Below, in pieces: positions 6,053 to 62,535 of a DNA stretch of 64,000 nt; within the stretch, counting starts at the first letter, position 1; each line of letters starts with the position of its first letter. Below the pieces are notes generated by a model. That model was not told the DNA's origin. It searched no databases and worked only from the letters and a program-made list of their open reading frames with translations. This DNA is from an uncultured Anaerolineales bacterium (GTDB lineage Bacteria > Chloroflexota > Anaerolineae > CG2-30-64-16). The stretch covers positions 624 through 64,623 of the forward strand of contig CAZYGI010000005.1 in assembly GCA_964647255.1 (NCBI GenBank). Direction: 5' to 3'. A program made the translations under genes and the position numbers.

Positions 6053-6172
6053 ATTGGGACTTGGTAGCTTAGTAACTTGGTGCCTTGTTGCGCCCAGATT
6101 GCCAGCCAACCGATCTACCAGTTTACCAATCTACTAATCTACCCAGTTGCCAATCACCAGGAGCAATCACCC
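6053..6172. repeat. 8-nt periodic word array in inverted halves (TTGGTANC-type x5, then ACCAATCT-type x6)
   Basis: Read directly: ttggtagc ttagtaac ttggtgcc ... accagttt accaatct actaatct acccagtt. Confidence 0.8.
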
Positions 6173-8155
6173 ATGGCAAAAGTCACTATGGTTCCGAGCA
6201 TTGATCCGGCCGCCTGCGGCATCCTGGATTGGGCCAGCGCCGAAGGCATCCAGACTTCGTTCAGCCGCGCGGCCGATTTCAAGCCCTGCACTATCGGCAA
6301 CGGGCAGTCCGGCGTGTGCTGCAAGAACTGCTACATGGGCCCATGCCGCATCACCAAGGACGGCCAGGTCGGCATCTGCGGCGCGACCGTGGAGACGATC
6401 GCCGCGCGCAACCTCGCGCGCGCCATCGCCGCGGGTTCGGCCGCGCATTCAGATCACGGCCGCGACCTGGCCTTCACCCTGCAGGCCGTTGGGCTGGGCG
6501 AGGCCCAAGGCTATGAGCTGCGCGACACAGCCAAGCTCTACTCGGTCGCGGCCAAGCACGGCATCCCCACCAGGGGCCGCAGCGACAAAGAGATCGCACT
6601 GGACGTCGCCAACAAGGCGATCGGCGAGTTCGGCCAGCAGCGCGGCCAGTTGAGCTATCTCTCGGTCGCGCCGCCCAAGCGTCAGGCGATTTGGAAGGAG
6701 CAGGGCGTCATGCCGCGCGGCATTGATCGCGAGGTCGTCGAGATCCTGCATCGCACGCATATGGGCGACGACCAGGACGCCAGCCACATCCTCAACGCCG
6801 CGATCCGCACCGCGCTTTCCGACGGCTGGGGCGGCTCAATGTGGGCCACCGACATCTCCGACATCCTGTTCGGCACCCCCAGCCCCAAGGTGGGCGAAGT
6901 GAACCTGGGCTGCCTGGAGGAGAAGCAGGTCAACATCATCGTCCACGGCCACGAGCCGACCCTCAGCGAGATGATCGTGACCGCGGTGCAGGACCCCGAG
7001 CTGATCGCCTACGCCAAGAGCAAGGGCGCGGAGGGGATCAACCTGGCCGGCATCTGCTGCACCTCGAACGAGGTGATGATGCGCCAGGGCATCCCGTCGG
7101 CCGGCAACTTCCTCAACCAGGAGTTGGCGATCCTCACCGGCGCCATCGAGGCGATGGTGGTGGATGTGCAGTGCATCATGCAGTCGCTGACCGGCGTGGC
7201 GAGCCATTTCCACACCGAGATCATCACCACCAGCCCAAAAGTGAAGATGACCGGCGCGACGCACATCGAGTTCGACGAGCATCACGCGCTGGATATCGCC
7301 AAGAGTATCGTGAAGCGCGCGTGCGACAACTACACCCGGCGCGGTGACACGCGCATCCCCAAAGACAGCGCCCAAGCGGTGGTGCCCGGCTTCAGCCACG
7401 AGTACCTGAACTACATGCTGGGGGGCTTCTACCGGCAGTCGTTCCGGCCGCTGAACGAGGCCATCGCGACCGGCCGCCTCCGCGGTGTGGCGGCCGACGT
7501 GGGCTGCAACAACCCCGGCATGACCCAGGACAAGGCGCACATGGACGTCATCACCGAGCTGCTGAAGAACGATGTCCTGGTCGTGAGCACCGGCTGCGGC
7601 GCGCTGGCAGCGGGCAAGTACGGCTACCTTAAGGGCGAGGCTGGCCTGGACAAGGTCGGCCCGGGGCTGCGCGAGATCTGCGAAACCCTCGGCATCCCGC
7701 CTGTGCTGCACATGGGCTCGTGCGTGGACAACAGCCGCATTCTGACCGTGCTGAGCCAGATGGCAACCGAGGGTGGGCTGGGCGACGACATCAGCGACAT
7801 CCCGGCCGTGGGCCTGGCGCCGGAATGGATGAGCGAGAAGGCGCTGGCCATCGCCGCGTACTGCGTCGGCTCCGGCGCCTACGTCATGATGGGCGTCCGC
7901 AACCCGGTGGAGTTCGCCGACGCGGTGACCGACATCCTCTCCGGAGAATGGGAGAAGAACTACGGCGGCAAGCTGGAGTTCGTGGTCGAGCCGGCGGAGA
8001 TCGTCAAAAAGACGCTGGAGCACATTGACAAGAAGCGCGCCGCGCTCAAGCTGCCCGCCTACGACCCGACCCACTTCGGCGCCTCCGGTGACGCCGCGAT
8101 GGAAGCGTTCGTCGAGCTCCCGGTGGAACAACAGATGGCGGAGCTTTACGGCTGA
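6173..8155 (+). CDS. acsA: anaerobic Ni-dependent carbon monoxide dehydrogenase catalytic subunit
   Basis: CTIGNGQSGVCCKNCYMGPCRI N-terminal Fe-S motifs, ~660 aa. Start moved from 6077 to ATG 6173 (AGGAG upstream). Confidence 0.92.
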   Translation: MAKVTMVPSIDPAACGILDWASAEGIQTSFSRAADFKPCTIGNGQSGVCCKNCYMGPCRITKDGQVGICGATVETIAARNLARAIAAGSAAHSDHGRDLAFTLQAVGLGEAQGYELRDTAKLYSVAAKHGIPTRGRSDKEIALDVANKAIGEFGQQRGQLSYLSVAPPKRQAIWKEQGVMPRGIDREVVEILHRTHMGDDQDASHILNAAIRTALSDGWGGSMWATDISDILFGTPSPKVGEVNLGCLEEKQVNIIVHGHEPTLSEMIVTAVQDPELIAYAKSKGAEGINLAGICCTSNEVMMRQGIPSAGNFLNQELAILTGAIEAMVVDVQCIMQSLTGVASHFHTEIITTSPKVKMTGATHIEFDEHHALDIAKSIVKRACDNYTRRGDTRIPKDSAQAVVPGFSHEYLNYMLGGFYRQSFRPLNEAIATGRLRGVAADVGCNNPGMTQDKAHMDVITELLKNDVLVVSTGCGALAAGKYGYLKGEAGLDKVGPGLREICETLGIPPVLHMGSCVDNSRILTVLSQMATEGGLGDDISDIPAVGLAPEWMSEKALAIAAYCVGSGAYVMMGVRNPVEFADAVTDILSGEWEKNYGGKLEFVVEPAEIVKKTLEHIDKKRAALKLPAYDPTHFGASGDAAMEAFVELPVEQQMAELYG

Positions 8156-8232
8156 ACGTTTACGCGTTATCACGTTTGAACGGTGGAACGTGCTAACGTG
8201 TAAACGTGTAAACGTGCAACGGAGGAACACAC
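8156..8232 (+). repeat. octamer array, unit NNAACGTG, about 9 units
   Basis: ...ggaacgtg ctaacgtg taaacgtg taaacgtg caacggag. Same unit as the array at 62461-62535. Confidence 0.85.
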
Positions 8233-18401: not shown

Positions 18402-18607
18402 AGATCAGGGATTGGAGATTGTTTCCTGGCACTACAACCGTATTTCGCGCTTGATATCATTCTGAGTGACCAGCGGGAGCGAAGAATGTCTTCCGCCCAC
18501 TGGATTTCTCAAACGACAGACGAGATTCTTCGTCGCTCCGCTCCTCAGAATGACAAGGCGTGGTTGTCGTACTGGCTATAATCCCTAATCCCTGATCCCC
18601 AATCTTT
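18402..18607. mobile_element. MITE-like non-coding cassette bounded by inverted GGGATTG-type heptamer arrays
   Basis: Left agatcagggattggagattg (18402-18422); right ataatccctaatccctgatccccaatct (18578-18607). Interior has atcattctgag / cctcagaatgac and gagcgaagaatgtc / gagattcttcgtcgctc inverted pairs. Confidence 0.5.
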
Positions 18608-25016: not shown

Positions 25017-26381
25017 ATGCAACGGGTCAAGGAAGCCCCCAATATCCCGGAATTGTTGGCCAAGGCGCAGAAGCCTTCGGCGGATGCGATGAAACTCCAT
25101 CCCTTCTACCGCGGGAAGATCGAAACGGTCCCCAAGTCGTGCATCCGCTCGCTGGATGATTTCGCGATCTGGTATACGCCCGGCGTTGCCGCCCCCTGTC
25201 GCGCCATCCAGAAGGACCCCGAACTGGTCTACGAGCACACGAACAAGTGGAACACCGTTGCGGTCATCTCTGATGGCACGCGCGTCCTCGGGCTGGGTGA
25301 CATCGGTCCGAAGGCCGGCCTGCCCGTGATGGAGGGCAAGGCGCTGCTCTTCAAGTGGCTGGGCGGCGTGGATGCCGTGCCGATCATGCTCGACACGAAA
25401 GACCCGGACGAGATCATCCACACCACACTCCTACTCCAACCGTCCTTCGGCGGGGTCAACCTGGAGGACCTCTCCCAGCCCAAGTGCTTCCGCATCCTCG
25501 ACACCTTGCGCGAGAAGGCGGAGATCCCGATGTGGCATGATGACCAGCAAGGGACGGCGTGCGTCACGGTGGCGGGGCTGCTCAACGCGCTGAAGATCGT
25601 CAAGAAGCCGATCGGCGACGTCAAAGTCGTCTTCATCGGCTCCGGCGCATCGAACGTGGCCATCACCCGGCTCTGCTTCAAGGCCGGCGTAGACCCGGCG
25701 AAGTGCATGGTGGTGGACAGCCAAGGCATTTTGAACCGCGACCGGCAGGACATCTTTATGCGCCGCGCGGAATACGTGGACAAGTGGCGGCTGTGCCAGA
25801 TCACCAACGCGGAGGGGCGCAAGGGCGGGATCGCCGAGGCGCTGGCCGGCGCCGACGCCGTAATCGCGCTGAGCAAACCCGGCCCGGGCACCCTCCTGCC
25901 CGAATGGATCAGCGCCATGGCCGAGGATGCTATCGTTTTCGCCTGCGCCAACCCGGTGCCGGAGATCTGGCCCTGGGAGGCGAGCGCGGCCGGCGCAGCC
26001 ATCGTCGCCACCGGCCGATCGGACTTCGCGAACCAGGTCAACAACTCACTGGGTTTCCCCGGCATCTTTCGCGGCGCGCTGGACGTGCGGGCGCGCACCA
26101 TCACCGACGAGATGTGTATCGCGGCCGCCCAGGCGCTGGCCGACGCCGCCCCTGACGGCGGCCTGAATCCCGACTGCATCCTGCCGACCATGATCGAGTG
26201 GGAGGTCTACGCCAAGGAGGCCGTGGCCGTCGGCATGAAAGCGCAGGAACAGGGGATCGCCCGGCTGAGCTTCACCGCAGATGCGCTCTTCCAGAACGCC
26301 GCCAGCATGATCCAGCGCTCGCGGCGACTGACCGAGGTGATGATGGAGACGGGGCTGATCGAGGAGCCGCCGGCAGAGTAG
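25017..26381 (+). CDS. NAD(P)-dependent malic enzyme (no PTA domain)
   Basis: YTPGVAAPC, VISDGTRVLGLGDIG, MEGKALLFK, NLEDLSQPKCF, FIGSGASNVA. Confidence 0.88.
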   Translation: MQRVKEAPNIPELLAKAQKPSADAMKLHPFYRGKIETVPKSCIRSLDDFAIWYTPGVAAPCRAIQKDPELVYEHTNKWNTVAVISDGTRVLGLGDIGPKAGLPVMEGKALLFKWLGGVDAVPIMLDTKDPDEIIHTTLLLQPSFGGVNLEDLSQPKCFRILDTLREKAEIPMWHDDQQGTACVTVAGLLNALKIVKKPIGDVKVVFIGSGASNVAITRLCFKAGVDPAKCMVVDSQGILNRDRQDIFMRRAEYVDKWRLCQITNAEGRKGGIAEALAGADAVIALSKPGPGTLLPEWISAMAEDAIVFACANPVPEIWPWEASAAGAAIVATGRSDFANQVNNSLGFPGIFRGALDVRARTITDEMCIAAAQALADAAPDGGLNPDCILPTMIEWEVYAKEAVAVGMKAQEQGIARLSFTADALFQNAASMIQRSRRLTEVMMETGLIEEPPAE

Positions 26382-26478
26382 ACAAGCAGACACGGAAAAC
26401 ATGGACCAGGAACCGGGGCACACTCCCTCGGCTCCTCGTCTCCTTGTTTCCTTGTTTCCTATCACAAGGAGCCACACC

Positions 26479-30614: not shown

Positions 30615-33600
30615 TTACGGGACCCGGGTCGCCGTGAAAGGCGTCTTGACGTCTACCTGTTCCGTCAGGTAGGGCAGGGTGCTGTCGTTTGCCGCGGCTT
30701 GCGCGCTGTGCACCCAGCTCGCGGTCCAGGAGTACGGCCCGCCGCTGACGGAACCGCAACCGTAGATGTAGAAATTATTCAGGCCCAACGATCCGCTGGC
30801 GGAGGTGGACGACGCGAACGTGCCTGAGGCATAGAACCCTCCGGTGAACGAGAACTTATTGCTGGAGATGGACGCCGGAGTTGTGTGGGTGATCTTGTAG
30901 CTTCCGCAGCCGGATACGCTGAGATAGATGGCGAAGTTCTGTACTTGCTTTCTATCGCTGCTTACGTAGAACTCCATGGCTCCGCCGCTCTTTTGCCAGA
31001 AGCCGGGGGTGGGACCGGATACAGGCGGAGGAACCACGACCGACTGAACGTTGCTCCATCCACTGTCGCCTATGCTGTTCGTAGCCTTCACGCGGTAATA
31101 GTACGTGCCGACCGCCTTGCCCGAGGCCGCCCACGACGTCGAGGCGCTGTGGTCCACCCGAGTCGTCGGGCTGGAGAATGCGCTGTTATCATCTTCCTGG
31201 AGAGTGTACGAATTGGCGCCGGCGACCGAGTTCCAGCTCACCGTGTAACTCCCATCCCCATCCGCGTTGTCGATCGCATCCAGCACCGGCGCGGATGGCG
31301 GCGCAACCGCCGCCGACTGAACATTACTCCACGCGCTGTCACCGTAGGCGTTGGTGGCCCTCACCCGGTAGTAGTAGGTGCCGATGGTCTTGCCTGAGGC
31401 TGCCCAGGACGTGGAGGCGACATGGTCTGCCACCGTGGCCGGGCTGGAGAATGCGCTGTTGTCATCTTCCTGGAGGGTGTACGAGGTGGCGTCGGCAGCC
31501 GGGTTCCAGCTCACTGCGTAATTCCCATCCCCATCCGTGTTGTCGATTGCATTCAGCACCGGCACATCGGGCACAGGCGGCCAGCGACGCATGATCAGCG
31601 GCAAGTAGACCTTCCGGCCACCGACCAGTGCGCTGCTGGAGTTGTTCGCCGAATCGCTATCATTCGGCGCCGAGATTGTAGCAGTGTTGACGAAAGTGAA
31701 TCCCGACGGCAGGTCGGTGCTGAGCTTGCCGTTGACGGTAATGGTGCCACTGGCGCCCGCGGCGAGCGAGGCGAGGTTCCAGGTGTACGCCGCGCCGCCC
31801 CCTTGCGTCACCGGAAGTGTGCTGCTGTAGCTCAGGTTGGCCACCTGGGATGGCACGAGATCTGTGATCACGATCTGCGATGCGGCGGCGTTGCCCAGGT
31901 TGGCGACCGTGAGGATGAAGCTGATGGGATCGCCCGGCCGGGGGTTGCTGCTGGCCAGACGCTTGTTGATGCTGACATCGGGCGCGGTCACCACAGCCGC
32001 GCACGTGTAGATGTTGATGTCATCCAGGAACCAGCCCCAACTGTAGCCTGAGCTATCGGTGCCGATGCGGAATCGGAACCGGATGTTCTGCCCCGCGAGC
32101 GTGCTCAGGCCCAGGCGGCTTGAGATGTAACCGTTGCTTTTGCTGCCAAAGGCCTGGCGCGCCCCCAACGGATTGCCGCTGTCAAGCGTGCCGCGATACC
32201 CGTTGTCGGTGATGAGCGAGCCGGCATCGTGCCACGAGCTGCCGCTGTCGGTGCTGTATTCGATGACGCCGCCGTCGTACATGGTTCCGCCGGAGGAGGT
32301 CTCAAAACCGTACGAGTGGTTGAAGCGGAGATAGGGCGATTTCCCTGCCGGCAGCGCAATGTTCTTAGTCATCGCGATGAAAGAGTCGGTGCTGCTGTCC
32401 GGGTCGTCGCCGAAAAAGTTGTACCTGCCGCTGGTGGCGTAGGTAGCATCGAACCCGGTGTAGGCGTTTGGATTCTGTGGATAGAACCATACCTGCGAAC
32501 CGCTGATCGTGCCCTTGCTCCAGTTGCCGCTGGCCGTGTTCTCCAGGTTATCGAAGAATAGGCTGGTGGCTGTCTGACCGGTGGGGCAGAGAGGCGCTTC
32601 ATTGGCCGGGCACTGGGTCGGCTGCTGGTTCATCTCTGTGGCGTCCACCGCGTTCTTCACCTGTTGGCAGTCGGCGGCAGTGATGCCGTTGGTGCCGACC
32701 AGGTTGGTGCAGGCCTGTTGCAAGCCATTGTAGAGATCCTGGAAATCGCTGGCCGACGTGAACAGATGGGTCTGCACCTCGTAGAAAATCTTGGCGACTT
32801 TCGTGATCCCTAAGCCAGTCACGGTTTTGCCATTGAAGGTGCCGCCATCGGTCATCAGGTAGGCTGCCTTGTTCGACACGCCGCTGTTGGTGTGGACCCC
32901 GCCGTTGTCTTTATCCTGCAGGTCGCACGAATAGTTGGCGCTCGTTATCTTGTCCGGGTCATTGTACGCCGGCGGGTTGCTCATGCTGCGGATCGCACCG
33001 CCCGGCACGTCTTCACCCATCAGCCAGCGAACCGCGGTCGTGTCGGTACCCTTGCCGTTGCTCAGGTCAATGAACTCACCCCAGATATCTGACAACGACT
33101 CGTTAATAGCACCGGATTGCATGTAGTAAAAGAGGTGTGATTCGTGATCTGTGACCCCGTGCGTCATCTCATGGGCCACCACGTCATCGGCGGACGAGTA
33201 CCCCTGGCCGTAGACCATCTGCTCGCCGTTCCAAAACGCGTTCTCGTAGGGACAGGTGACGCCGGTTTTGCAGTAACGCACCGTTGAGATAAGCTGCATG
33301 CCGGCGCCGTCCACGCTATCCCGGTTGTGTGTGTTCTTGTAGAAGTCGTAGACATCCCCCGCGTAGTCATAGGCCTTGTCAGCATCGCCGATCCCGGTGG
33401 CTCCCTGGCCCTCCACACGCACCGGACCGTTGCCGGGCAGCCCATAAGATGTGTTGTTCTGGTTGTCGTAAATCTTGCGGTACTTGGCCGTGTCGATCTC
33501 GCTGAAATGGAGCACCACACCGCCGCGATGGGCATCGACCAGAACCAGCTCCTTGATCGGCAGCAGATCGGTTGCCTGCACCTCGACGCGCCAGACTAAC

Positions 33601-36419: not shown

Positions 36420-37631
36420 ATGGATTTCGGCTGGACGGAAGAACAGACCATGTGGCGCCGCGCGGTGCGCGAGTTCGCCCAGAAGAAGATTGCACCCCGC
36501 GTGCGCGAGATTGACACAAACCACCGCATCCCCGATGAGATCATCAAAGGGATGACGGATATGGGGCTTTGGGCGCCCACCGTGTCGGAGGAGTACGGCG
36601 GCCAGGGGATGAGCGTCACCATGGCGACCATCGCCGCCGAGGAGCTGGGGCGCGCGGAGATCAGCCTGGCGCTGCCGGTGTGGTACCTGGTGGAAGCGAG
36701 CTGGGGCTTCGTCTTCGACCGTTACGCTTCGCCTGCGCTGAAGCGGGAGATCCTGCCGGACGTCACTGCGGGCAAGAAGTTCCTGGGCATCGCCACCACT
36801 GAGCCGGGCGGCGGCTCCGACATCGAGGGCGTCACCCGCTCCCGCGCTGAGCGCCGGCCGGACGGCAAATGGGTGCTCAACGGCGAGAAGGTCTACATCA
36901 GCGGGGTCAAGGAATCGGAGCGGCTCGGCGGCATCCATATGACCCTCGTCCGCACCGACCCGGCGGCCGGCCACAAGGGGTTCACCTACTTCGCGGTGCC
37001 GCTCAAGGACAATCCGCAGGTCAAAACCACCTATTTCGAGAACTGGGGCCGCACGGGCATCTCGACCGGCGGGTTCGTGATGGAAGACCTGGTGCTGGAC
37101 GACCACTACCGCATCGGTGAGGTGGGCCGCGGGTTCTACATGGGGATGGAGGGCTTCACCTTCGCCCGCGCGCTGATCGGCGCAACCTGTGTGGGCGCAG
37201 CCGACACCGCGCTGGCCATGGGCGTCGAGTACATCAAGCAGCGCAAGTCGTTCGGGAAGCCGCTGGCCGCCTACCAGGGCATCAACTTCCCGGCCGCCGA
37301 ACGCTACGTGGACATCGAGACCGCCCGTCTGCTGACCTACAAGGCCGCATGGATGGCCGATGAGATGTACAGCAAGCGCACGTTCAAACCCAAGGACATC
37401 GCCCTGTACGGCGCGATGGCAAAGCTGCGCGCGCCGATCATGGCCTTTGAGACCTTCAACGAGGTGGCGAACTGGCTGGGCGCGATGGGCTACACCAAGG
37501 AATACCCCATCGAGATGGGCATCCGCGGCGTCCGCTCCTACTCCATCGGGGCGGAAGGCGGCATGAACATCATGCGCATGATCATCGCCCGCGAGCTGAT
37601 CGGCGGCGAGTACACCAATCCGAGGCAGTAG
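36420..37631 (+). CDS. acyl-CoA dehydrogenase
   Basis: MDFGWTEEQTMWRRAVREFAQKKIAP, ATTEPGGGSD, QRKSFGKPLAAYQ. AAGGAGG RBS; track start 36399 trimmed. Confidence 0.88.
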   Translation: MDFGWTEEQTMWRRAVREFAQKKIAPRVREIDTNHRIPDEIIKGMTDMGLWAPTVSEEYGGQGMSVTMATIAAEELGRAEISLALPVWYLVEASWGFVFDRYASPALKREILPDVTAGKKFLGIATTEPGGGSDIEGVTRSRAERRPDGKWVLNGEKVYISGVKESERLGGIHMTLVRTDPAAGHKGFTYFAVPLKDNPQVKTTYFENWGRTGISTGGFVMEDLVLDDHYRIGEVGRGFYMGMEGFTFARALIGATCVGAADTALAMGVEYIKQRKSFGKPLAAYQGINFPAAERYVDIETARLLTYKAAWMADEMYSKRTFKPKDIALYGAMAKLRAPIMAFETFNEVANWLGAMGYTKEYPIEMGIRGVRSYSIGAEGGMNIMRMIIARELIGGEYTNPRQ

Positions 37632-37703
37632 AGCGGAGAGCGCGGAGCGAGAACATCGGAGATCTACGCTCCACGCTCCACCCTCCACGCTCCACGAGCA
37701 CCC
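37632..37703. repeat. heptamer arrays in inverted halves (GAGCGNN x3 / ACGCTCC x4)
   Basis: gagcggagagcgcggagcgag ... acgctccacgctccaccctccacgctccacg. Confidence 0.75.
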
Positions 37704-45552: not shown

Positions 45553-46932
45553 ATGACGACCGATGTGCGAGAAACCACCATGACCGATACCGCTATCCTG
45601 CGTATGCCCGACGGCTTCCTGTGGGGCGCGGCGACCGCCGCACACCAGAACGAAGGCGGCAACCGCAACAACCAGTGGGCGGCCTGGGAGCAGCAGCCCG
45701 GCCGCATCCACAACGACGCCGTGGCCGGCAAGGCAACCGACTGGTGGAACCTGGAGACCGCCGAGGCCGATTTCGACCGCGCGGCCGAGCTCGGGCTGAA
45801 CAGCCTGCGCATCTCGGTCGAGTGGAGCCGGATCGAGCCGGAAGAGGGGCTGTTCGACCAGACCGCGCTGCGTAAGTACGCGGAGATGGTCGGCCTGCTG
45901 CGCGCCCGCGGCATCGAGCCGATGGTCACGCTGCACCACTTCACCGACCCGCTGTGGCTGACCGACCTGGGCGCGTGGGAAAACCCCAAGGTCGAGGACT
46001 ACTTCGCCCGTTTCACGACCCGCGTTGTGGAGGCGTTGGGCGATCAGGTGACGCTGTGGTGCACGGTCAACGAGCCGATCGTCTACGCGTACAATGGGTT
46101 CGCGGCCGGCGGAGCGTTCCCACCGGGCGCCAGCAACATCCGCCGCGCGTTCGGCGTGCTGCGGCAGATGATCCTGGCGCACGGCCGCGCCTACCGGACG
46201 ATCCATCGCCTGCAGAACGGCGCCCGCGTCGGCCTGGCGCACAATCACCGCGTCTACCTCCCGGCGAACCCGGCCAGGGCGCTGGATCGGCGCGCGGCAG
46301 CGCTGCTGGATCGCATGGCGAACGGCGCGGTCTACGCAGCGTTTACCCGCGGGAAGCTGCTGCCGCCGCTTGGCATGGGGCAGCGCGTCACCCCCCTGAT
46401 TGATGCCTGCGATTACATCGGCGTGAACTACTACACACCGGCGCGCGTCCGTTTCGACCCGCGCGCGCCGGGCCAGCTCTTTGCGCAGCAGTTCTACTCG
46501 CCCGAGGCCGAGCTGAGCGATGTGACGCCCACCGGCGAGGCGTATGGCGAGATTGCACCGGAGGGCCTCTACCTGGCGCTGATGCAGGCCGCGGCCTACG
46601 GCAAGCCGCTGTACGTCACCGAAAACGGCGTGCCCGATCACGACGACGACGTGCGCCCGCGCTTCATCGCCACGCACCTGGCCGAGACCTGGCGTGCGAT
46701 CCGGGACGGCGCGGACGTGCGGGGCTTCTATCACTGGACGCTGGTGGACAACTTCGAGTGGGCCGCCGCCTGGAGCCTGCGCTTCGGTTTGTTTGAGCTC
46801 GATCCGGCCACCCAGGCCCGCACCCCACGCACCAGCGCCGCGGTCTACAGCCGGATGGCCCAGGCCAACGGCCTGCCGGTCAGCCTGCTGGAGCGGGTGG
46901 CGCCGGGATATCGGCTGCAGGCTGAAAGATAG
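45553..46932 (+). CDS. glycoside hydrolase family 1 beta-glucosidase
   Basis: FLWGAATAAHQNEGG, acid/base TVNEP, nucleophile YVTENG, WTLVDNFEW. Alternative start ATG 45580. Confidence 0.9.
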   Translation: MTTDVRETTMTDTAILRMPDGFLWGAATAAHQNEGGNRNNQWAAWEQQPGRIHNDAVAGKATDWWNLETAEADFDRAAELGLNSLRISVEWSRIEPEEGLFDQTALRKYAEMVGLLRARGIEPMVTLHHFTDPLWLTDLGAWENPKVEDYFARFTTRVVEALGDQVTLWCTVNEPIVYAYNGFAAGGAFPPGASNIRRAFGVLRQMILAHGRAYRTIHRLQNGARVGLAHNHRVYLPANPARALDRRAAALLDRMANGAVYAAFTRGKLLPPLGMGQRVTPLIDACDYIGVNYYTPARVRFDPRAPGQLFAQQFYSPEAELSDVTPTGEAYGEIAPEGLYLALMQAAAYGKPLYVTENGVPDHDDDVRPRFIATHLAETWRAIRDGADVRGFYHWTLVDNFEWAAAWSLRFGLFELDPATQARTPRTSAAVYSRMAQANGLPVSLLERVAPGYRLQAER

Positions 46933-46970
46933 AGGTTGGAAGGTGGAGGCTGGTCTCCACCTTCCAACCT
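46933..46970. repeat. perfect 16-bp stem hairpin made of CTTCCAN-type heptamers
   Basis: AGGTTGGAAGGTGGAG gctggt CTCCACCTTCCAACCT, followed by ccaccttccaatttccagcttccag. Confidence 0.85.
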
Positions 46971-46996
46971 CCACCTTCCAATTTCCAGCTTCCAGT

Positions 46997-47035: not shown

Positions 47036-47108
<73 letters not shown>

Positions 47109-47120
47109 CTCACTCGGATC

Positions 47121-47245: not shown

Positions 47246-49801
47246 GTGCAAATCACAGTGTCCCCCAAAGAAGCCGCCGCCCGCATCAAGATCAACAAGC
47301 TGCTCGAAGCCGCCGGTTGGCGCTTCTTCCCCGATGGGAACGCGCCCGCCAATATCCGCCTGGAGCCCGCCGTCGCGCTCAAACCGGCCGATCTCGACGC
47401 GCTGGGCGAGAATTTCGAGAAGCCGAGCAAGGGCTTCGTGGATTTCTTGCTGCTCGACGCACGGGGCTTCCCGCTGATCGTCCTGGAGGCTAAAGCGGAG
47501 GACAAAAACCCGCTGATTGGCAAGGAGCAGGCCCGACGATACGCGCGGTCGCAGAACTGCCGCTTTGTGCTCCTCTCCAACGGCAACCTGCACTACTTCT
47601 GGGATCTCGAACGCGGCAACCCCTATCTGATCACGGCGTTCCCGACCCCTGCGTCGGTCACGGGTTATCAGAAGACCGTCCCCGACCCCCAGCGCCTCAT
47701 TGCGGAGATCGTCGAAGCCGACTACATCGTCCGCACCCAGCGCCCCGGCTATGCCGCCGAGGCCGCCTGGAAGAACGCGGCCGAGCGCCCCGGCTTCATC
47801 GAGGCCAACGGGCTGCGCTTCCTGCGCCCCTATCAGGTGAAGGCCGTCGCCGCGCTCCAGCGCGCGGTCAAGGAGGGCAAGGATCGCTTCCTGTTCGAGA
47901 TGGCGACAGGCACCGGCAAGACCCTCATCGCGGCGGCGGTCATCAAGCTCTTCCTGCGCACCGGCAACGCGCGGCGGGTCCTCTTTCTGGTAGATCGCCT
48001 GGAGCTTGAAGATCAGGCCAAGAAAGCGCTCAGCAAGGTGCTCGGCAACGACTATCAGGTCGTCATTTACAAAGAGAACCGCGACGACTGGCGCCGCGCC
48101 GATGTGGTCGTCACCACCGTCCAATCGCTGCTCTTCAACAACAAGTACCAGCAGCTCTTTTCGCCCACCGATTTCGACCTGGTGATCTCGGACGAGGCGC
48201 ACCGCTCCATTGGCGGCAACGCTCGCGCCGTCTTCGACTTCTTCGTCGGCTACAAACTCGGCCTGACCGCGACGCCGCGCGACTACCTCAAGCGGTTCGA
48301 TCGGGCCGGCCCAGCCACGCACGACCCGCGCGAGGTCGAGCGCCGGCTGCTGCTGGACACCTATCGCACCTTCGGCTGCGAAAACAGCCAGCCGACCTTC
48401 CGTTACTCGCTGCTCGACGGCGTGCGGGATGGCTTCCTGGTCAACCCGACCGTGGTGGACGCCCGCACCGACATCACCACGGCGCTGCTCTCGGCCGATG
48501 GGTTTGTGGTCGAATTCCGAGATGAGGAAGGCGACGACCAACGGGAAACGTTCAAGCAGCGCGAGTTCGAGAAGCGCTTCTTCGCCGACGCCACCAACCA
48601 GCTCCTTTGCAAGACTTTCCTGGAAAACGCCCTGCGCGACCCGATCAGCGGCGAGATCGGCAAGTCCATCGTCTTTGCGGTCAGCCAAAACCACGCGGCC
48701 AAGCTGGCGCAGATCCTCAACCAGATGGCCGATCGGATGTTCCCCGGCAAGTACCAGTCCGACTTCGCGGTGCAGGTCACGTCGCAGATCCCCGACGCCC
48801 AGCAGTTTACGATCAACTTCACCAACAACAACCTGCTCGGCTCGGCCAACTTCCTGTCGGCCTACCGGACCAGCAAGGCGCGCGTCTGCGTGACGGTCGG
48901 CATGATGACCACCGGCTACGACTGCCCGGACATCCTGAACCTCGGCCTCTTCCGGCCGATCTTCTCGCCCACCGACTTCATCCAGATCAAGGGCCGCGGC
49001 ACGCGCCGGCACAACTTCCTCGAACAGCTTTTCGACGACGGCCTCAAAGATGCCGTCACGCAGCCGCAGAAGACCGCCTACAAGCTCTTCGACTTCTTCG
49101 CCAACTGCGAGTACTTCGAGGAGGGGTACAACTACGACGAGGTGCTGAAGCTGCCCCGGCCCCAGGGCCAGGAGCGCGGCGAGGACAGCGATGGCACAGG
49201 CCCGACGGTGGCCGTCGGCGCCTACGAGCACCTGGGCGCGGACATCCTGGCGACGATCAAGGAAGAGACCATCGGCTTCGAGGGGATGAAGATTGACCGG
49301 ATGTTTTTCGAGAAGTTCGAGGACGCGGTGCGCGGGAACGCGGCCATCGCCAGGGAGATCGAGGCGTGCCGCTGGGAGCGCGCCGTGGACACCGTCAACC
49401 GGGAGGTTTTGAACAAGCCGGAGGAGTTCTACACCCTGGACAAACTGCGCAAAGCCGCGGCCGTGGACCGCCGCCTGACCCTGCGCGAGATCCTGGAGAA
49501 GGTCTTCGGCCTGATCCCGCGCTTCAAATCAAAGGATGAGCTGCTGGAGGAGGAGTTCGGCAAGTTCGTCGCCGACGCCCGGCCCACCGAGGTCGAGGCG
49601 ATCCCGGCGATCAAGACCTTCTTCAAGGCCTATGTGACCAGCGATCAGGTGCGCGGCATCATCGAGGCGAAGCAATTCACCGACCTGGCGACGAACCCGG
49701 TCTTTTCCACGCGCGATTTTCGGGCCGTGCCGGCGAAGTACCGCGCGTTGGTGCCGGAGTATGTCAAGGACTACGTCTCATTGAACCAGTTTGCAGCGTA
49801 G
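47246..49801 (+). CDS. hsdR: type I restriction endonuclease R subunit (EcoEI/IB-like)
   Basis: N-terminal PD-(D/E)xK-like D..LEAK, helicase motifs MATGTGKT, DEAH (VISDEAHRS), LGLTATP, QIKGRGTR; long helical C-terminal domain. Confidence 0.9.
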   Translation: MQITVSPKEAAARIKINKLLEAAGWRFFPDGNAPANIRLEPAVALKPADLDALGENFEKPSKGFVDFLLLDARGFPLIVLEAKAEDKNPLIGKEQARRYARSQNCRFVLLSNGNLHYFWDLERGNPYLITAFPTPASVTGYQKTVPDPQRLIAEIVEADYIVRTQRPGYAAEAAWKNAAERPGFIEANGLRFLRPYQVKAVAALQRAVKEGKDRFLFEMATGTGKTLIAAAVIKLFLRTGNARRVLFLVDRLELEDQAKKALSKVLGNDYQVVIYKENRDDWRRADVVVTTVQSLLFNNKYQQLFSPTDFDLVISDEAHRSIGGNARAVFDFFVGYKLGLTATPRDYLKRFDRAGPATHDPREVERRLLLDTYRTFGCENSQPTFRYSLLDGVRDGFLVNPTVVDARTDITTALLSADGFVVEFRDEEGDDQRETFKQREFEKRFFADATNQLLCKTFLENALRDPISGEIGKSIVFAVSQNHAAKLAQILNQMADRMFPGKYQSDFAVQVTSQIPDAQQFTINFTNNNLLGSANFLSAYRTSKARVCVTVGMMTTGYDCPDILNLGLFRPIFSPTDFIQIKGRGTRRHNFLEQLFDDGLKDAVTQPQKTAYKLFDFFANCEYFEEGYNYDEVLKLPRPQGQERGEDSDGTGPTVAVGAYEHLGADILATIKEETIGFEGMKIDRMFFEKFEDAVRGNAAIAREIEACRWERAVDTVNREVLNKPEEFYTLDKLRKAAAVDRRLTLREILEKVFGLIPRFKSKDELLEEEFGKFVADARPTEVEAIPAIKTFFKAYVTSDQVRGIIEAKQFTDLATNPVFSTRDFRAVPAKYRALVPEYVKDYVSLNQFAA

Positions 49802-49837
49802 GAATTTTAGATTTTCGATTGCGGATTGCGGATTGGA
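49802..49837. repeat. GATTNNN heptamer array (left bracket of the four-helix-bundle gene)
   Basis: gaatttta gattttc gattgcg gattgcg gattgga. Confidence 0.85.
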
Positions 49838-49844
49838 GGGCGCC

Positions 49845-50228
49845 ATGGATGAGCAGGAATTGAAGACGCGCACCAAACAGTTTGGCTTGCGGGTGGTGAA
49901 CCTGGTCGCCGCGCTGCCGAATACCACAGCGGGACGGGCCATTGGCAACCAGCTCGTGCGCAGCGGAACATCCGTGGGGGCAAATTACCGCGCAGCATGC
50001 CGCAGTCGGTCAAAGGCTGAGTTTATCGCCAAGATCGGCACAGTCGTCGAAGAGGCAGACGAATCGGCGTTCTGGCTTGAGATGATCGTTGAGGGTGGAC
50101 TTCTGAAAAACGAACTGGTGGCCCCGCTTCATCAGGAAGCGGAGGAACTGACGGCTATTTTCACCGCGTCTGCCCGCACCGCCAAGCAGAACAATCAGCA
50201 ATCACAAATCGGAAATCGAAAATGCTAG
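49845..50228 (+). CDS. four-helix-bundle protein (23S rRNA intervening-sequence protein family)
   Basis: FGLRVVNLVAALPNTTAGRAIGNQLVRSGTSVGANYRAACRSRSKAEFIAKIGTVVEEADESAFWLEM. GGAGG RBS. Confidence 0.85.
   Translation: MDEQELKTRTKQFGLRVVNLVAALPNTTAGRAIGNQLVRSGTSVGANYRAACRSRSKAEFIAKIGTVVEEADESAFWLEMIVEGGLLKNELVAPLHQEAEELTAIFTASARTAKQNNQQSQIGNRKC
50193..50223. repeat. AATCNNN heptamer array (right bracket, inverted relative to 49802-49837)
   Basis: aatcagc aatcaca aatcgga aatcgaa aat; encodes the C-terminal QQSQIGNRK tail. Confidence 0.85.
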
Positions 50229-52720
50229 ACGCCGACACCCGCCGCCGCATTGACACCGCCCGCGACATCCTCGTGGGCAAAGTGCCCGACCCCAAGAGCC
50301 AGGTCGAGCAGATCACCATCGCGCTGATCTACAAGTTCATGGATGACATGGACGCGGAGAGCGAGGAGTTCGGCGGGGTGCGCAAGTTCTTCGCCGGGGA
50401 GTTCGCGCGCTATGGCTGGGCCAGGCTGATGCACGCCGGGCTGGGCGGCTTCGAGACGCTGAACCTCTACGCCGAGGCGATCACCAAGATGCCGGAGAAC
50501 CCCGGCATCCCGCCCCTGTTCCGCAACATCTTCAAGAACGCCTACCTGCCCTACCGCGACCCTGAGACGCTGCGGATGTTCCTCAAGGTCATTGACGAGT
50601 TCACCTACGACCACAGTGAGCGGCTGGGCGACGCGTTCGAGTATCTGCTGTCGGTACTCGGCTCGCAGGGGGACGCGGGACAGTTCCGCACCCCGCGCCA
50701 CATCATTGACTTCATGGTCGCCGTGGTGGACCCGAAGAAGACCGAGACCGTGCTCGATCCGGCCTGCGGCACCGCGGGGTTCCTGATCTCCTCCTACAAG
50801 CACATCCTGCGGGCCAACACCGACGCGGACGGCCACAGCACGCTGACGCCGGATGAAAGGGGCCGCCTGGCGCAGAACTTCCACGGCTACGACATCTCGC
50901 CCGACATGGTGCGGCTGTCGCTGGTGAACCTCTACCTGCACGGGTTCGCCGACCCGCACATCTTCGAGTACGACACGCTGACCAGCCAGGAGCGCTGGCA
51001 CGAGTACGCCGATGTGATCCTCGCCAACCCGCCCTTTATGTCGCCCAAGGGGGGCATCAAGCCGCACAACCGCTTCTCGGTGCAGAGCAAGCGCAGCGAA
51101 GTGCTCTTTGTGGACTACATGGCCGAGCATCTGACGCCCGGCGGCCGCGCCGCCATCATTGTGCCCGAGGGGATCATCTTCCAGAGCCAGAACGCATACC
51201 GCGACCTGCGGAAGATGCTGGTGGACACGGCCCTGGTCGCCGTGGTTTCGCTGCCGGCCGGGGTGTTCCAGCCCTATTCCGGCGTCAAGACCTCGATCCT
51301 GATCCTCGACAAGGCGCTGGCGAAGCGGGCGGACGCCGTCGCCTTCTTCAAGGTGGAGAACGACGGCTTCGGCCTGGGCGCACAGCGCCGCGAGATTGAC
51401 CGGAACGACCTGCCGCAGGCCCAGGCCGAGATCGGCGAATACCTGCGCCGGCTGCGGACGGGGGAATCGGTGGCCGATTTCCGGCCCGCGTTGGGGCTGG
51501 TCGTGGAGAAAGCAAAGATCGCGGCGAATGGGGAGTACAATCTGAGCGGGGAACGGTATCGGGAGGGGACGGGCAGCGTGTCTGCATGGCCGCTGGTTTC
51601 AGTCGGGAGTGTTTTCTGTAAATCCGAAGAGTCAGTGTTACCCAAGACACTTCAGAACGCTGTGACCTATATCGGTCTCGAAAACCTGACACAGCATACG
51701 GGTGAGATCATAGGAAATATTGTCGCCGAGAAACCATCCGACATCAAGAGCCTGAAGAATGTTTTTTACCCAGGCGACCTTCTATATGGGAAGCTCCGCC
51801 CTAACCTGAACAAGGTTTGGGTGGCAGACCGAAAAGGTATCTGCTCAACTGATATTTTCGTGATTCGATCCATTGAAGGGCAGGCCATCCCCGCTCTTTA
51901 CGGCTATATCTTCCGTAGCGCGCGCTTCAACGACGCGGTCTTGGTGCAACTCAAGGGCGCGCAACTTCCAAGAATCGGGTGGTCATCGTTCGCGGAACTC
52001 CAAATCCCCCTCCCGCCACTTGACGTCCAGCAGGCGATCGTCGCGGAGATCGAGGGCTACCAGAAAGTCATCAACGGCGCCCGCGCCGTCCTCGACAACT
52101 ACCGCCCCCACATCCCCATCCAGCCTGACTGGCCGATGGTGGAGGTGCGAAAAGCCTGCATCGTGAATCCCAAAAAATCGGAGCTCGGCGATCTGCCCGG
52201 TTCCTTGCAGGTATCGTTTGTCCCAATGTCGGACGTCTCAACGAACGCCATGTTACTTGATGCAAGACAGACGAGGCGCTTGGATGAAGTGACTTCCAGT
52301 TATTCATACTTCAGGGATGGCGATGTGCTCATCGCCAAGGTTACGCCATGCTTCGAAAACGGGAAGGCTGGAGTAGCGCGCAACTTGGTGAACGGTGTTG
52401 GATTCGGCTCAAGTGAGCTTCACGTTTTACGGCCAACGAGGGACGTTCTCTCAGAATGGGTCTTCCTGTTTGTAGCAACTCCAGCCTTTAGGGCATCAGC
52501 CGTGCCAAAGATGACTGGCACCGGAGGGCTACAGCGCGTTCCTACGGCGGTTATCGAAGCTTACACCATTCCCCTCCCACCCCTCGCCACCCAGCAAGCC
52601 ATCGTCGCCGAGATCGAAGCCGAGCAGGCGCTGGTCGCGGCCAACCGCGAGCTGACCGCGCGCTTCGAGCGGAAGATCCAGGCGGCCCTGGCGCGGGTTT
52701 GGGGGGGAGGTTTGCCGTGA
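50222..52720 (+). CDS. hsdM: type I R-M methyltransferase fused to a two-TRD specificity subunit (HsdM-HsdS fusion)
   Basis: SAM motif LDPACGTAGFL, catalytic ILANPPF. C-terminal half has two HsdS-type TRDs, each ending in IPLPPL(D/A)xQQAIVAEIE. TRD DNA is visibly lower GC. Confidence 0.85.
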   Translation: MLDADTRRRIDTARDILVGKVPDPKSQVEQITIALIYKFMDDMDAESEEFGGVRKFFAGEFARYGWARLMHAGLGGFETLNLYAEAITKMPENPGIPPLFRNIFKNAYLPYRDPETLRMFLKVIDEFTYDHSERLGDAFEYLLSVLGSQGDAGQFRTPRHIIDFMVAVVDPKKTETVLDPACGTAGFLISSYKHILRANTDADGHSTLTPDERGRLAQNFHGYDISPDMVRLSLVNLYLHGFADPHIFEYDTLTSQERWHEYADVILANPPFMSPKGGIKPHNRFSVQSKRSEVLFVDYMAEHLTPGGRAAIIVPEGIIFQSQNAYRDLRKMLVDTALVAVVSLPAGVFQPYSGVKTSILILDKALAKRADAVAFFKVENDGFGLGAQRREIDRNDLPQAQAEIGEYLRRLRTGESVADFRPALGLVVEKAKIAANGEYNLSGERYREGTGSVSAWPLVSVGSVFCKSEESVLPKTLQNAVTYIGLENLTQHTGEIIGNIVAEKPSDIKSLKNVFYPGDLLYGKLRPNLNKVWVADRKGICSTDIFVIRSIEGQAIPALYGYIFRSARFNDAVLVQLKGAQLPRIGWSSFAELQIPLPPLDVQQAIVAEIEGYQKVINGARAVLDNYRPHIPIQPDWPMVEVRKACIVNPKKSELGDLPGSLQVSFVPMSDVSTNAMLLDARQTRRLDEVTSSYSYFRDGDVLIAKVTPCFENGKAGVARNLVNGVGFGSSELHVLRPTRDVLSEWVFLFVATPAFRASAVPKMTGTGGLQRVPTAVIEAYTIPLPPLATQQAIVAEIEAEQALVAANRELTARFERKIQAALARVWGGGLP

Positions 52721-52782
52721 ATGGGTTTGCCGTGAATGAGCCGTGAGAGTGAGCCGTCAATGAATTCACGGCCTGGTACGGC

Positions 52783-52842: not shown

Positions 52843-52927
52843 TACCAGACGCCGAATTCATTCGACGGCGCATTCGACGGCGCTCCGGCGGCGCTTGATT
52901 CGGCAGCCCATGAAAAGGAGGGGTGAA

Positions 52928-53437
52928 ATGCCATTCTGGCGCACATATTACCATCTGGTATGGGCGACAAAGAATCGTGAACCGTTGATCGCACCGGAAA
53001 TCGAGCCGCGCCTGTACGCGTATATCGTCCACAAAGCCGCCGAGTTGGGCGCGTTCGTCTACGTCATCAACGGGTGCACCGATCACATCCATCTGGTTGT
53101 CGCTATTCCGCCTCACGTCTCTGTTTCCGAACTGGTCAAGCACCTCAAAGGCGCCTCCTCCCACGATCTGAATCAACAGGGACTTGAAGACCATTTCGCC
53201 TGGCAGCGTGGCTATGGTGTCCTGACTCTGGGCCAGCGCCAGAAAGCCGATGCCGAGTTGTATGTGAAACAGCAAAAAGAGCATCATCGCACAGGCAGTG
53301 CCATCCAATGGCTCGAACATTGCGCGGAAACGGACGAGGGACCCGAAGAGCTGTCATCGCCGGCCGCATTTCAACCGGTGCCAGCGATACGCGAATCACA
53401 GTCGGCCTATGATTCTCTCGGTGAACCGGCGTTTTAG
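52928..53437 (+). mobile_element. tnpA: IS200-like Y1 (HUH) transposase gene, no tnpB partner; possibly RAYT-like
   Basis: YYHLVWATKNREPLI, HUH motif DHIHLVV, catalytic Tyr region WQRGYGV. AAGGAGG RBS; track start 52736 trimmed. Confidence 0.85.
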
Positions 53438-61253: not shown

Positions 61254-62438
61254 ATGCCATCCATCCACACGATCGCCGTCCACGCGGGCGAGCAGGCCCA
61301 GCGGCCGCTGTTCACGCCGGTCGCCACGCCGATCTACCACGCGTCCAGCTACGTCTACGACGACATGGAGATGCTGGACGCGACCTTTGCCGGGACCTTC
61401 GACGGCCCGATGTACACCCGCTACGGCAACCCAACCGTGTCAGCGCTGGAGGCGGCGGTGGCCGCGCTGGAGGGGGGCGAGGCGGCGCTGGCCTACGGCT
61501 CCGGCATGGCGGCGATCCATGCCGCGCTGCTCGCCGCGGGCGCGCGGGCGGGGACCGCAGTGGTGGCAGCCCAGGACTGCTACGGCGCGACCTACGCGCT
61601 GCTGAGCAAGCTGCTGGCGAGCCAGGGCGTGGCCACGCACTTTGTGGACACCGCCGACCTTGGCGCCGTGCGCGCGACCCTGGCGGCTGCCCGCCCGGCC
61701 GCGCTGCTCGTCGAGACGATCTCGAACCCGCTGCTCAAGCTGGCCGATCTGCCGGCGCTGGCGGAGCTGGCGCACGGTGCGGGCGCGGCGCTCATCGTTG
61801 ACAACACGTTCGCCTCACCCTACCTCTGCCGGCCGCTGGCGCTCGGCACGGACTATGTGGTGCACTCCGCAACGAAGTACCTGGGCGGGCACGGCGATGT
61901 GCTGGGGGGCGTCATCGTGACCAGTGCGGCGCGGCGGCGGGAGCTGAACGAGATCAACAAGCTGATCGGTGCGAACCTGGGGCCGCAGGAGGCGTGGCTG
62001 GTGCTGCGCGGGCTCAAGACGCTGCCGCTGCGCGTCCAGCGCCAGTGCGAGAACGCCCGCCGCGTGGCCGAGTGGCTGGCCGGCCATCCGCGGGTGAGCC
62101 GCGTCAACTATCCCGGCCTGGCGTCGCACCCGCAGCATGGCCTCGCGGCGCGGCTGCTGGAGCGGGGGGAGTTCGGCGCGATGATCAGCTTCGATATCCG
62201 CGACGCGGACCGACCGGCCGTCTTCCGCTTCATGGAGGCGCTGCGGCTGGTGCTGCCCGCCACCACGCTCGGCGACGTCTACAGTCTGGTGCTTTACCCG
62301 GCGCACTCCTCGCACCGCGCGCTCGACCCGGCGCTGCGCCGGCGCCTCGGCATCGGCGACGGCCTGGTGCGGCTGTCGGTAGGGATCGAGGATCCCGCGG
62401 ATATCATCGCGGATTTAGGGCAGGCGTTAGCACGTTGA
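61254..62438 (+). CDS. Cys/Met-metabolism PLP enzyme (cystathionine gamma-synthase / gamma-lyase / O-acylhomoserine sulfhydrylase family)
   Basis: PLP-lysine motif HSATKYLGGHGD; YTRYGNPT; C-terminal VRLSVGIED. Confidence 0.85.
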   Translation: MPSIHTIAVHAGEQAQRPLFTPVATPIYHASSYVYDDMEMLDATFAGTFDGPMYTRYGNPTVSALEAAVAALEGGEAALAYGSGMAAIHAALLAAGARAGTAVVAAQDCYGATYALLSKLLASQGVATHFVDTADLGAVRATLAAARPAALLVETISNPLLKLADLPALAELAHGAGAALIVDNTFASPYLCRPLALGTDYVVHSATKYLGGHGDVLGGVIVTSAARRRELNEINKLIGANLGPQEAWLVLRGLKTLPLRVQRQCENARRVAEWLAGHPRVSRVNYPGLASHPQHGLAARLLERGEFGAMISFDIRDADRPAVFRFMEALRLVLPATTLGDVYSLVLYPAHSSHRALDPALRRRLGIGDGLVRLSVGIEDPADIIADLGQALAR

Positions 62439-62535
62439 CAGGTTGACAGGTTAGCACGTTGAAACGTGCGAACGTGCAAACGTGCGAACGTGCAAACGTG
62501 CGAACGTACAAACCTGCAAACGTGCCGACCTGCCG
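62426..62535 (+). repeat. word-repeat spacer: GTTAGCACGTTGA(C/A) duplicated, then octamer NNAACGTG x ~9
   Basis: gaaacgtg cgaacgtg caaacgtg cgaacgtg caaacgtg cgaacgta caaacctg caaacgtg ccgacctg. Lies between convergent genes. Confidence 0.9.

Follow-up and report, generated by a model that had tools for sequence, protein, structure and literature searches.

What is a gene for a 23S rRNA intervening sequence protein doing inside a restriction-modification (RM) operon? The window considered here is a 64,000-nucleotide stretch of contig CAZYGI010000005.1 (assembly GCA_964647255.1) from an uncultured Anaerolineales bacterium of the Chloroflexota. It carries a type I RM operon in which a small four-helix-bundle (4HB) gene lies between hsdR and a fused hsdM-hsdS gene. 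The 4HB gene is bracketed by two inverted arrays of heptamers, with the word GATT on the left and AATC on the right. We argue that gene and arrays are probably one unit of about 425 bp, a promoter-less insertion cassette like the intervening sequences (IVSs) of rRNA. It would consist of a left arm, a Shine-Dalgarno (SD) sequence, the 4HB gene and a right arm, and be transcribed by read-through. There is a widespread class of such arrangements, in which genes of one 4HB subfamily are bracketed by inverted arrays, usually of five heptads each. The cassettes lie in sense orientation in the junction between two operon genes. Their arms abut the stop and start codons of the neighbors, and the outermost right heptad supplies the downstream ATG.

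The cassette in the window

All features of the operon are on the forward strand. The gene hsdR (47246-49801) encodes a type I restriction subunit R according to Pfam (ResIII/HSDR_N), NCBIfam (EcoAI-type R) and PADLOC (REase_I). Its stop codon, TAG, is at 49799-49801, and the left arm begins 1 nt after it. The fused hsdM-hsdS gene (50222-52720) has N6_Mtase and Methylase_S domains, and its ATG (50222-50224) is part of a 7-nt overlap with the 4HB stop (ATGCTAG). The C-terminus of HsdR (...SLNQFAA*) is identical in orthologous loci, and HsdM begins with MLD(A/T)DT(K/R)RRI, as it does in loci whose junction is empty. Given this stop codon and this overlapping ATG, the 4HB unit exactly fills the gap, as a preliminary description of the window had claimed. 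The cassette spans 49803-50227, which is 425 nt.

The 4HB gene occupies 49845-50228 and encodes 127 amino acids followed by a stop. The preliminary description had the reading frame right, but its 128 residues included the stop codon. The protein belongs to the family named "S23 ribosomal / 23S rRNA IVS protein", with 78.3 bits for TIGR02436 (cut-off 24) and 50.4 bits for PF05635 (cut-off 33.8). The SD sequence GGAGG, read directly from the DNA at 49834-49838 of the forward strand, is 6 nt upstream of the ATG and shares bases with the innermost left heptad. Homologous cassettes place it in the same way (GATTGGAGG / GATTTGGAGG). Nothing in the cassette resembles a promoter or a terminator, and its transcript therefore probably arises by read-through from the host operon.

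Each arm has five heptads. The left one (49803-49837, forward strand) reads AATTTTA GATTTTC GATTGCG GATTGCG GATTGGA and has the word GATTK with period 7. The right one (50193-50227, forward strand) reads AATCAGC AATCACA AATCGGA AATCGAA AATGCTA and has the inverted complement of that word. Exact words give (GATTNNN)x4 at 49810-49837 and (AATCNNN)x4 at 50193-50220, which are the arrays reported at the outset. If one mismatch per word is allowed, each arm gains a fifth heptad, AATTTTA at 49803-49809 on the left and AATGCTA at 50221-50227 on the right. The start codon of hsdM sits within that outermost right heptad. As an inverted repeat the arms cover 49804-49835 and 50192-50223, 32 nt that are 81% complementary.

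We considered whether such arrays could arise by chance and rejected it. A pattern of four heptads with at most one mismatch has no match in any of 100 dinucleotide-preserving shuffles. The real 64-kb window has 5 overlapping matches, all in the two arms except for one solo array, which the pattern matches at 18580-18604. Control words of the same composition form almost no arrays.

The right array also encodes the odd C-terminal tail of the 4HB protein, NNQQSQIGNRKC (QQSQIGNRKC), as had been noticed before. Variants of the protein with 117-123 amino acids lack the tail, which implies that it is a by-product of a DNA or RNA feature. We also tried the idea that the left arm is a stop signal in all three frames. 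The window's left arm has a stop in one frame only, and the idea was dropped as a general rule.

The arrays follow the gene across phyla

If the arrays belonged to this genome or to its restriction system they should not be found with the gene elsewhere. One genome per species was scanned for homologs, which yielded 80 loci with proteins 55-79% identical. They span more than 10 phyla, among them the Planctomycetota, Verrucomicrobiota, Acidobacteriota, Chloroflexota, Nitrospirales, Spirochaetes, Ignavibacteria, Bacteroidota, Candidate Phyla Radiation (CPR) and Proteobacteria. Nearly all of the loci have GATT heptads upstream of the gene and AATC heptads at or after its 3' end. Exact period-7 arrays of GATT or AATC number 114 at the 4HB gene and 46 elsewhere in these 780 kb. 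A further 495 kb of loci not selected for the 4HB gene contain 5 arrays, and 4 of these are in a single locus that has a 4HB cassette.

The two arms of a locus also belong to each other. Their alignment score exceeds the 99th percentile of a within-locus null in 69 of the 80 loci. Arms match their own partner better than arms of other loci in 76 of 82 comparisons (p=3e-14). This extends to the free positions of the heptads, where the match is 0.69 within loci versus 0.49 across them (39/42, p=3e-10). The median arm is 31 nt long with 88% identity. More distant members of the family (33-54% identity) that reside on plasmids of cultured strains have inverted period-7 arrays too. Their carriers are Candidatus Chlorohelix, Gloeocapsa PCC 7428 (plasmid pGLO7428.03, near 12.2-12.6 kb), Planktothrix agardhii (PCC 7805, plasmid p1), Nostoc flagelliforme and N. 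punctiforme PCC 73102 (plasmid pNPUN01, near 162.6-163.1 kb). The word in N. punctiforme is a different one (GTCGGAG / CTCCGAC), so conservation is stronger for the period of 7 than for the word. It is the 4HB gene that the arrays belong to, not the restriction system or this genome.

The operons around the gene are just as varied. Only one of the 80 homolog loci (L011) is in an hsd context. The neighbors are co-directional in 70 of 76 cases upstream and 63 of 79 downstream. A Pfam census of the flanking partners finds HlyD then AcrB in 9-10 loci and NuoI then NuoJ in 8-9, and also an ABC (ATP-binding cassette) ATPase then a MacB/FtsX permease, and MoxR then DUF58. Other neighbors are NuoA- and NuoB-type subunits (2 loci on each side) and Cas1. 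On plasmids the gene is set beside DrmD and a PglX-type methylase, DUF1156 and Swt1-HEPN, or FabH and a peptidase. Phage carriage is rare, with 3 viral contigs and 2 distant phage matches.

The window cassette is an IVS-like element outside rRNA. An Rfam scan of the window found only a tRNA-Lys, and the flanks of the 4HB gene are hsdR and hsdM-S, hence it lies outside rRNA. None of 9 related loci that were scanned for rRNA context lies in rRNA, and these include four CPR loci. It is already known that the 4HB family exists, that it is present in rRNA IVSs and that it is scattered through defense loci. For arms made of heptad arrays, the habit of sitting in operon junctions and the gain and loss polymorphism we found no description in full-text searches, whose incomplete coverage makes this a lack of evidence and no more.

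Gain and loss at the hsdR-hsdM junction

A cassette should be absent from some orthologous junctions, and its arms should be absent with it. A metagenome scan with the N-terminus of HsdM gave 80 loci at 83-90% identity, and in 71 of them it was possible to locate both gene ends. The junction is empty in 47 of the 71. There the gap is at most 28 nt, typically a stop followed by AGGAGnCCCC and an ATG, and it has no arrays. One junction (L126) has a GATT-armed 4HB cassette. Inserts of other kinds longer than 500 nt are found in 16, and 13 of these are identified small genes. Five junctions have a second 4HB subfamily, of the TIGR04258 suffix type, whose ST-rich tails come from period-9 GTCCAC repeats. 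Two have a GxxExxY gene, one of them (L104) with GGATT arrays of period 9. Six have a gene of 272-277 amino acids that is unmatched in NCBIfam. Another 7 have insertions of 124-260 nt, some of which are remnants of these genes. The hsdR-hsdM junction of orthologous RM systems (L087-L166) is a hot spot for insertions.

The nearest HsdM relatives of the occupied loci are empty, and the cassette precisely replaces the native 10-nt spacer. The 4HB gene and its arms are gained and lost together. The presence/absence polymorphism that had been proposed as a check is thus there, and the empty sites have no arrays.

Two smaller observations concern these junctions. The short junction remnants carry a TGGCGAATTCGCCA palindrome. 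In locus L177 (2940-3011) the hsdM start motif 'AAAATGTTA' is doubled after the 4HB stop, with an extra AATC array in between. Evidently arrays expand and rearrange locally there.

Selection on the protein and on the heptad words

Purifying selection acts on the protein and also on the GATT words with their spacing. The ratio dN/dS of the 4HB gene against its relatives is 0.02-0.14. Compared with L175 and L177, dS is above 3 and saturated; all 5+5 GATT words and their spacing are kept and the free positions differ. Over the arrays, the positions of a heptad have frequencies of G 0.84, A 0.98, T 0.94, T 0.96 and K (G 0.39 / T 0.56), and the last two are nearly free. Self-match at lag 7 is 0.44 versus about 0.25 at other lags. 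Arrays most often have five copies, both upstream (34 of 57) and downstream (39 of 67). Only 20% of neighboring heptads have the same free triplet, so simple slippage does not account for the arrays.

What might read the words? An AlphaFold2 model of the protein has four helices with a mean predicted local distance difference test (pLDDT) score of 92. In its tail the mean falls to about 75 at residues 111-120 and 49 at 121-127, with values below 50 at 125-127. Foldseek matches BT_0352 (2RLD) with a template modelling (TM) score of 0.75-0.90 and Xcc0516 (2GSC) with 0.63-0.84, and a profile search matches 2RLD at E=4e-21. Foldseek also finds Avd, the accessory protein of diversity-generating retroelements (DGRs), with TM 0.65-0.70 (4DWL, and the ribonucleoprotein 8UB7). 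Five chains (A-E) are deposited in the 2RLD, 2GSC and Avd structures. By analogy with the five chains of 2RLD, 2GSC and 4DWL, the window protein may form a homopentameric ring. The PADLOC and PHROGs libraries have no match for it.

Neighboring codons and a predicted stem

The fit between arms and neighboring codons is seen in many loci. The last AATC is exactly 4 nt from the downstream start in 15 of 44, with the ATG taking the next word position (AATG), and 57% of downstream starts are within 12 nt of the last AATC. In 13 of 32 loci the first GATT shares bases with the TGA of the upstream gene (TGATT), and in 14 of 44 the stop of the 4HB gene overlaps the downstream start.

Folding the cassette RNA had been proposed early on, and the fold does predict a closing stem between the arms. 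For a 451-nt transcript segment the minimum-free-energy fold has 36 arm-arm pairs with a mean probability of 0.92, and z is -2.1. The duplex of the arms only is -30.6 kcal/mol. Of the hsdM AUG, the A and U fall within the predicted stem, as do two G of the SD of the 4HB gene. Arm-arm closure with at least 15 pairs is predicted in 68 of 79 other loci.

From these pieces a mechanism can be imagined. The arms would pair in the transcript into a stem of about 30 bp that encloses the 4HB open reading frame (ORF), as in ORF-bearing 23S rRNA IVSs, and a stem of this kind could be an RNase III-type substrate. The AUG of hsdM and part of the SD of the 4HB gene would lie within it. As ribosomes translated the tail encoded by the array, they would open the stem and hand over to hsdM, which would make the insertion non-polar. 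The five heptads of an arm could be binding sites on a single strand for the five subunits of a 4HB ring, one GAUUK word for each. Ring binding would then allow self-regulation and control over stem formation. We infer pentamer-heptad binding because five is the commonest number of copies, because the words have a core plus free positions and because the relatives are pentameric and bind nucleic acid.

What weighs against an insertion cassette

Several results do not fit this reading well. Some of them concern movement. No mobility enzyme was found. A comparison of empty and occupied junctions shows no target-site duplication; the spacer AGGAGnCCCC is replaced instead. Among the 80 species-level loci most pairs of similar cassettes have homologous flanks, so recent movement is not documented. 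The pair L022/L031, with cassettes 82% identical and flanks without homology, hints at transfer. The preliminary description had called the element an autonomous insertion cassette. Gene and arrays do travel together into unrelated operons, but "autonomous" is not supported, as no mobility enzyme, target-site duplication or near-identical copies in different contexts were found.

The closest homologs (85-95% identical) are another difficulty. They are all in hsdR-4HB-hsdMS order and their divergence is like that of the hsd genes, which implies that the cassette has long been resident in this lineage and was passed down along with the operon. The same would be expected of a resident accessory gene. 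The period-9 arrays around the GxxExxY gene of L104 mean that arrays are not exclusive to 4HB cargo, which makes it less convincing that the 4HB protein is their reader.

The remaining objections are to the stem and the coupling. The 4HB stop precedes the right array in 27 of 44 loci, so translational hand-over is not general. Mismatches in the arms have no sense-strand G-U bias (51 vs 64, p=0.26), and the duplex has the same energy in sense as in antisense. A DNA-level inverted repeat therefore fits as well as an RNA stem. Since there is no RNA-specific selection signal, an RNase III stem can only be suggested. In the window itself the free positions of the two arms match at 0.47 versus 0.50 for arms from different loci. 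Word and phase are maintained here, not full complementarity, and the window has little more than two GATT arrays in register.

Arrays without the gene

It had also been proposed that the arrays in other spacers of the window are empty versions of the same element. For the window this is unsupported, and the other arrays there use different words. For GATT-type arrays the idea does apply in other genomes, where geneless GATT/AATC hairpins lie beside cassettes (L010, L017, L030, L083, L183). Two loci have GATT/AATC arrays in frame within AcrB-type RND (resistance-nodulation-division) transporter genes, L029 (8020-8110) and L012 (6004-6214). They add about 30 and about 80 residues, respectively, and recall the in-frame insertions of Rickettsia palindromic elements. 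Locus L008 (4950-6330) is compound, with three tandem units. The first is an arm, a truncated 4HB start and an ORF6N gene, and the second is an arm and a 4HB gene. In the third an arm and an SD are followed by an ATG fused to about 35 AATC heptads, which form the N-terminus of the next protein (MKINNPQSTINNLKSKIQNPQ...).

Apart from the cassette arms, the 64 kb contain a single GATT-type array, a solo one of the AATC type (AATCCCT AATCCCT GATCCCC AATC) at 18579-18604 on the forward strand. It is in the spacer of two co-directional genes, directly before an SD and a TTG start at 18616. It may be the remnant of a right arm or a relative without cargo.

Weighing the alternatives

One alternative reading is that the 4HB protein is a dedicated accessory or regulatory subunit of the type I RM system and that the arrays are operon-specific control sequences. 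It would explain why the closest homologs are all found between hsdR and hsdM-S, with a divergence that parallels theirs, why the 4HB gene is translationally coupled to hsdM and why it is under strong purifying selection. There is a precedent as well, since 4HB genes between cmr3 and cmr2 have been recorded and read as cas-associated (PMC3936711). However, a subunit should not be missing from 47 of 71 orthologous junctions whose HsdM is 83-90% identical, with other junctions carrying different small genes. Nor should the same gene turn up with the same arrays in efflux, NADH dehydrogenase, ABC transporter, DISARM and other operons, with 1 of 80 homolog loci in an hsd operon and no PADLOC match for the protein. 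We consider it improbable that the gene is part of the RM system. Another alternative is that the arrays are ordinary intergenic repeats of the genome, either word hairpins or heptamers like the short tandemly repeated repetitive (STRR) sequences, which flank the 4HB gene by coincidence. The window does have at least six other inverted word arrays, and Cyanobacteria and Beggiatoaceae are known to have heptamer repeats close to start codons (PMC4679880). Those other arrays use other words, though, and GATT/AATC is found only at the cassette and one solo site where none is expected. Across phyla the GATT word goes with the gene, regardless of host composition. It is very hard to believe that this is coincidence.

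A more serious rival makes the array hairpin the primary element. It would be a palindrome like a MITE (miniature inverted-repeat transposable element) or a repetitive extragenic palindromic (REP) sequence, spread by the host or by an enzyme acting in trans. The 4HB gene would then be optional cargo in the loop, or would move between hairpins by recombination across the repetitive arms. Geneless hairpins beside cassettes are what this predicts, including the two in frame in RND pump genes, and so are other cargoes in arrays such as ORF6N (L008) and GxxExxY (L104) and the solo array at 18579-18604. What it does not predict is that the empty hsdR-hsdM junctions have no hairpin as a landing pad. 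Arrays are also almost absent from DNA not selected for the 4HB gene, and no transposase is consistently nearby. We regard a primary hairpin as unlikely, though it deserves more weight than an RM subunit. The insertion cassette in which gene and arms form one unit is the reading we prefer.

Comparison with known elements

Among known elements the closest to the window cassette is the 23S rRNA IVS with an S23p ORF, as in Coxiella burnetii and Leptospira. The Coxiella IVS has 428 nt, a 28-bp stem and an S23p ORF (PMC4990558). Both have PF05635 cargo, the sizes are 428 versus about 425 nt, and both have terminal inverted repeats that give a closing stem of about 28-32 bp around the ORF, which in our case is predicted. 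The likeness to rRNA IVSs suggested earlier is borne out by this agreement in size and stem. Neither has a known mobility enzyme, and both have a patchy, horizontal distribution (PMC4990558). The differences are that the window cassette is in an mRNA operon junction and that its arms are conserved heptad arrays. The window gene also has a strong SD and is under purifying selection, whereas the Coxiella S23p is apparently not made.

Small insertions bounded by terminal inverted repeats are found in transcribed intergenic regions in the Correia (nemis) elements of Neisseria, the enterobacterial repetitive intergenic consensus (ERIC) sequences and the Rickettsia palindromic elements. Their RNA hairpins can be RNase III substrates, and in-frame insertions in genes occur. 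To our knowledge none of them carries a gene, and their arms are unique sequence, not arrays of words. They have narrow host ranges and many near-identical copies.

Avd has the same fold as the 4HB protein and a five-subunit ring. The Avd ring binds nucleic acid, according to the DGR literature. Sequence similarity between the two is undetectable at E<=0.01, and Avd is not known to have heptad-array flanks. No reverse transcriptase domain is present in hsdR, hsdM-S or the IS200-like gene downstream; template and variable repeats were not searched for.

The arms can also be compared with heptamer direct repeats. The TAACTGA repeats of Beggiatoaceae, Cyanobacteria and Bacteroidetes and the cyanobacterial STRR sequences are tandem 7-nt units in transcribed spacers, shared by distant phyla with no known transfer mechanism (PMC4679880). 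Like the arms they are tandem 7-nt units that are often a few nt from a start codon. Unlike them they repeat an exact heptamer and have no partner array and no enclosed gene, whereas the cassette encloses its gene between two inverted arrays whose units have a core of 4-5 nt plus free positions.

Surroundings of the operon and other repeats

A tRNA-Lys(UUU) gene (47036-47109) with its own terminator is directly upstream of hsdR. In a sibling contig (L002, 1246-2160) a phage-type integrase gene is upstream of the same hsdR-4HB-hsdMS module. Together these suggest that the whole RM module rides on an integrative island. Directly downstream of hsdM-S is an IS200/IS605-type Y1 transposase gene (52925-53437). 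It is preceded by an inverted pair of tandem arrays of 11-12 nt (GCCGTGAATGA / CATTCGACGGCG) at 52709-52763 and 52859-52894. Mobilization of the cassette by this transposase was considered and rejected, as there is no recurrent association in other loci. No transposase is found within the cassette, whose sole ORF is the 4HB gene, or recurrently among the neighbors of the 80 homolog loci.

The window has other hairpins made of inverted 7-8-nt words, at about 6050-6150, 8150-8225, 26380-26460, 37630-37700, 46929-46994 and 62430-62535. Each uses a different word (ACCAATCT, AACGTGCA, CCTCGTCT, ACGCTCC, TCCAACC and AAACGTGC). In the first four an ATG follows within about 30 nt of the array, and three of these have an SD-like GGAG. 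The hairpin at 46929-46994 is between a glycosidase gene and the tRNA-Lys. In style the six resemble the cassette arms, but they have no word in common with the cassette. Elsewhere in the window, at 31040-31563, Tandem Repeats Finder reports a 273-nt unit duplicated in tandem (1.9 copies, 81% match).

Implications

How far can this be generalized? The 4HB genes found in defense and housekeeping operons could all be cargo of one ancient cassette class that crosses phyla, not accessory subunits. The pentamer would read the five-heptad arms, and the cassettes would be self-regulating modules that cut or insulate operon transcripts and the source population of the ORF-bearing rRNA IVSs. We put this forward tentatively, as a possibility that goes well beyond our argument for the window.

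If the cassette reading is right, a very common "hypothetical" gene has to be read differently. By association, 4HB genes between hsd, cas/cmr, DISARM/BREX, nuo or efflux genes have been assigned to those systems, and they should instead be treated as insertions with conserved arms of their own. The S23p / BT_0352 / Xcc0516 family, which has solved structures and Avd relatives, would gain a candidate ligand for its five-subunit ring, namely five GATTK heptads spaced at 7 nt. Cultured carriers exist in Nostoc punctiforme, Gloeocapsa PCC 7428 and Planktothrix agardhii. The design keeps an operon unbroken between coupled genes, with arms that abut one stop and supply the next start, and this may be of use in operon building. 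The rRNA intervening sequences would be linked to a much larger population of look-alike elements in mRNA.

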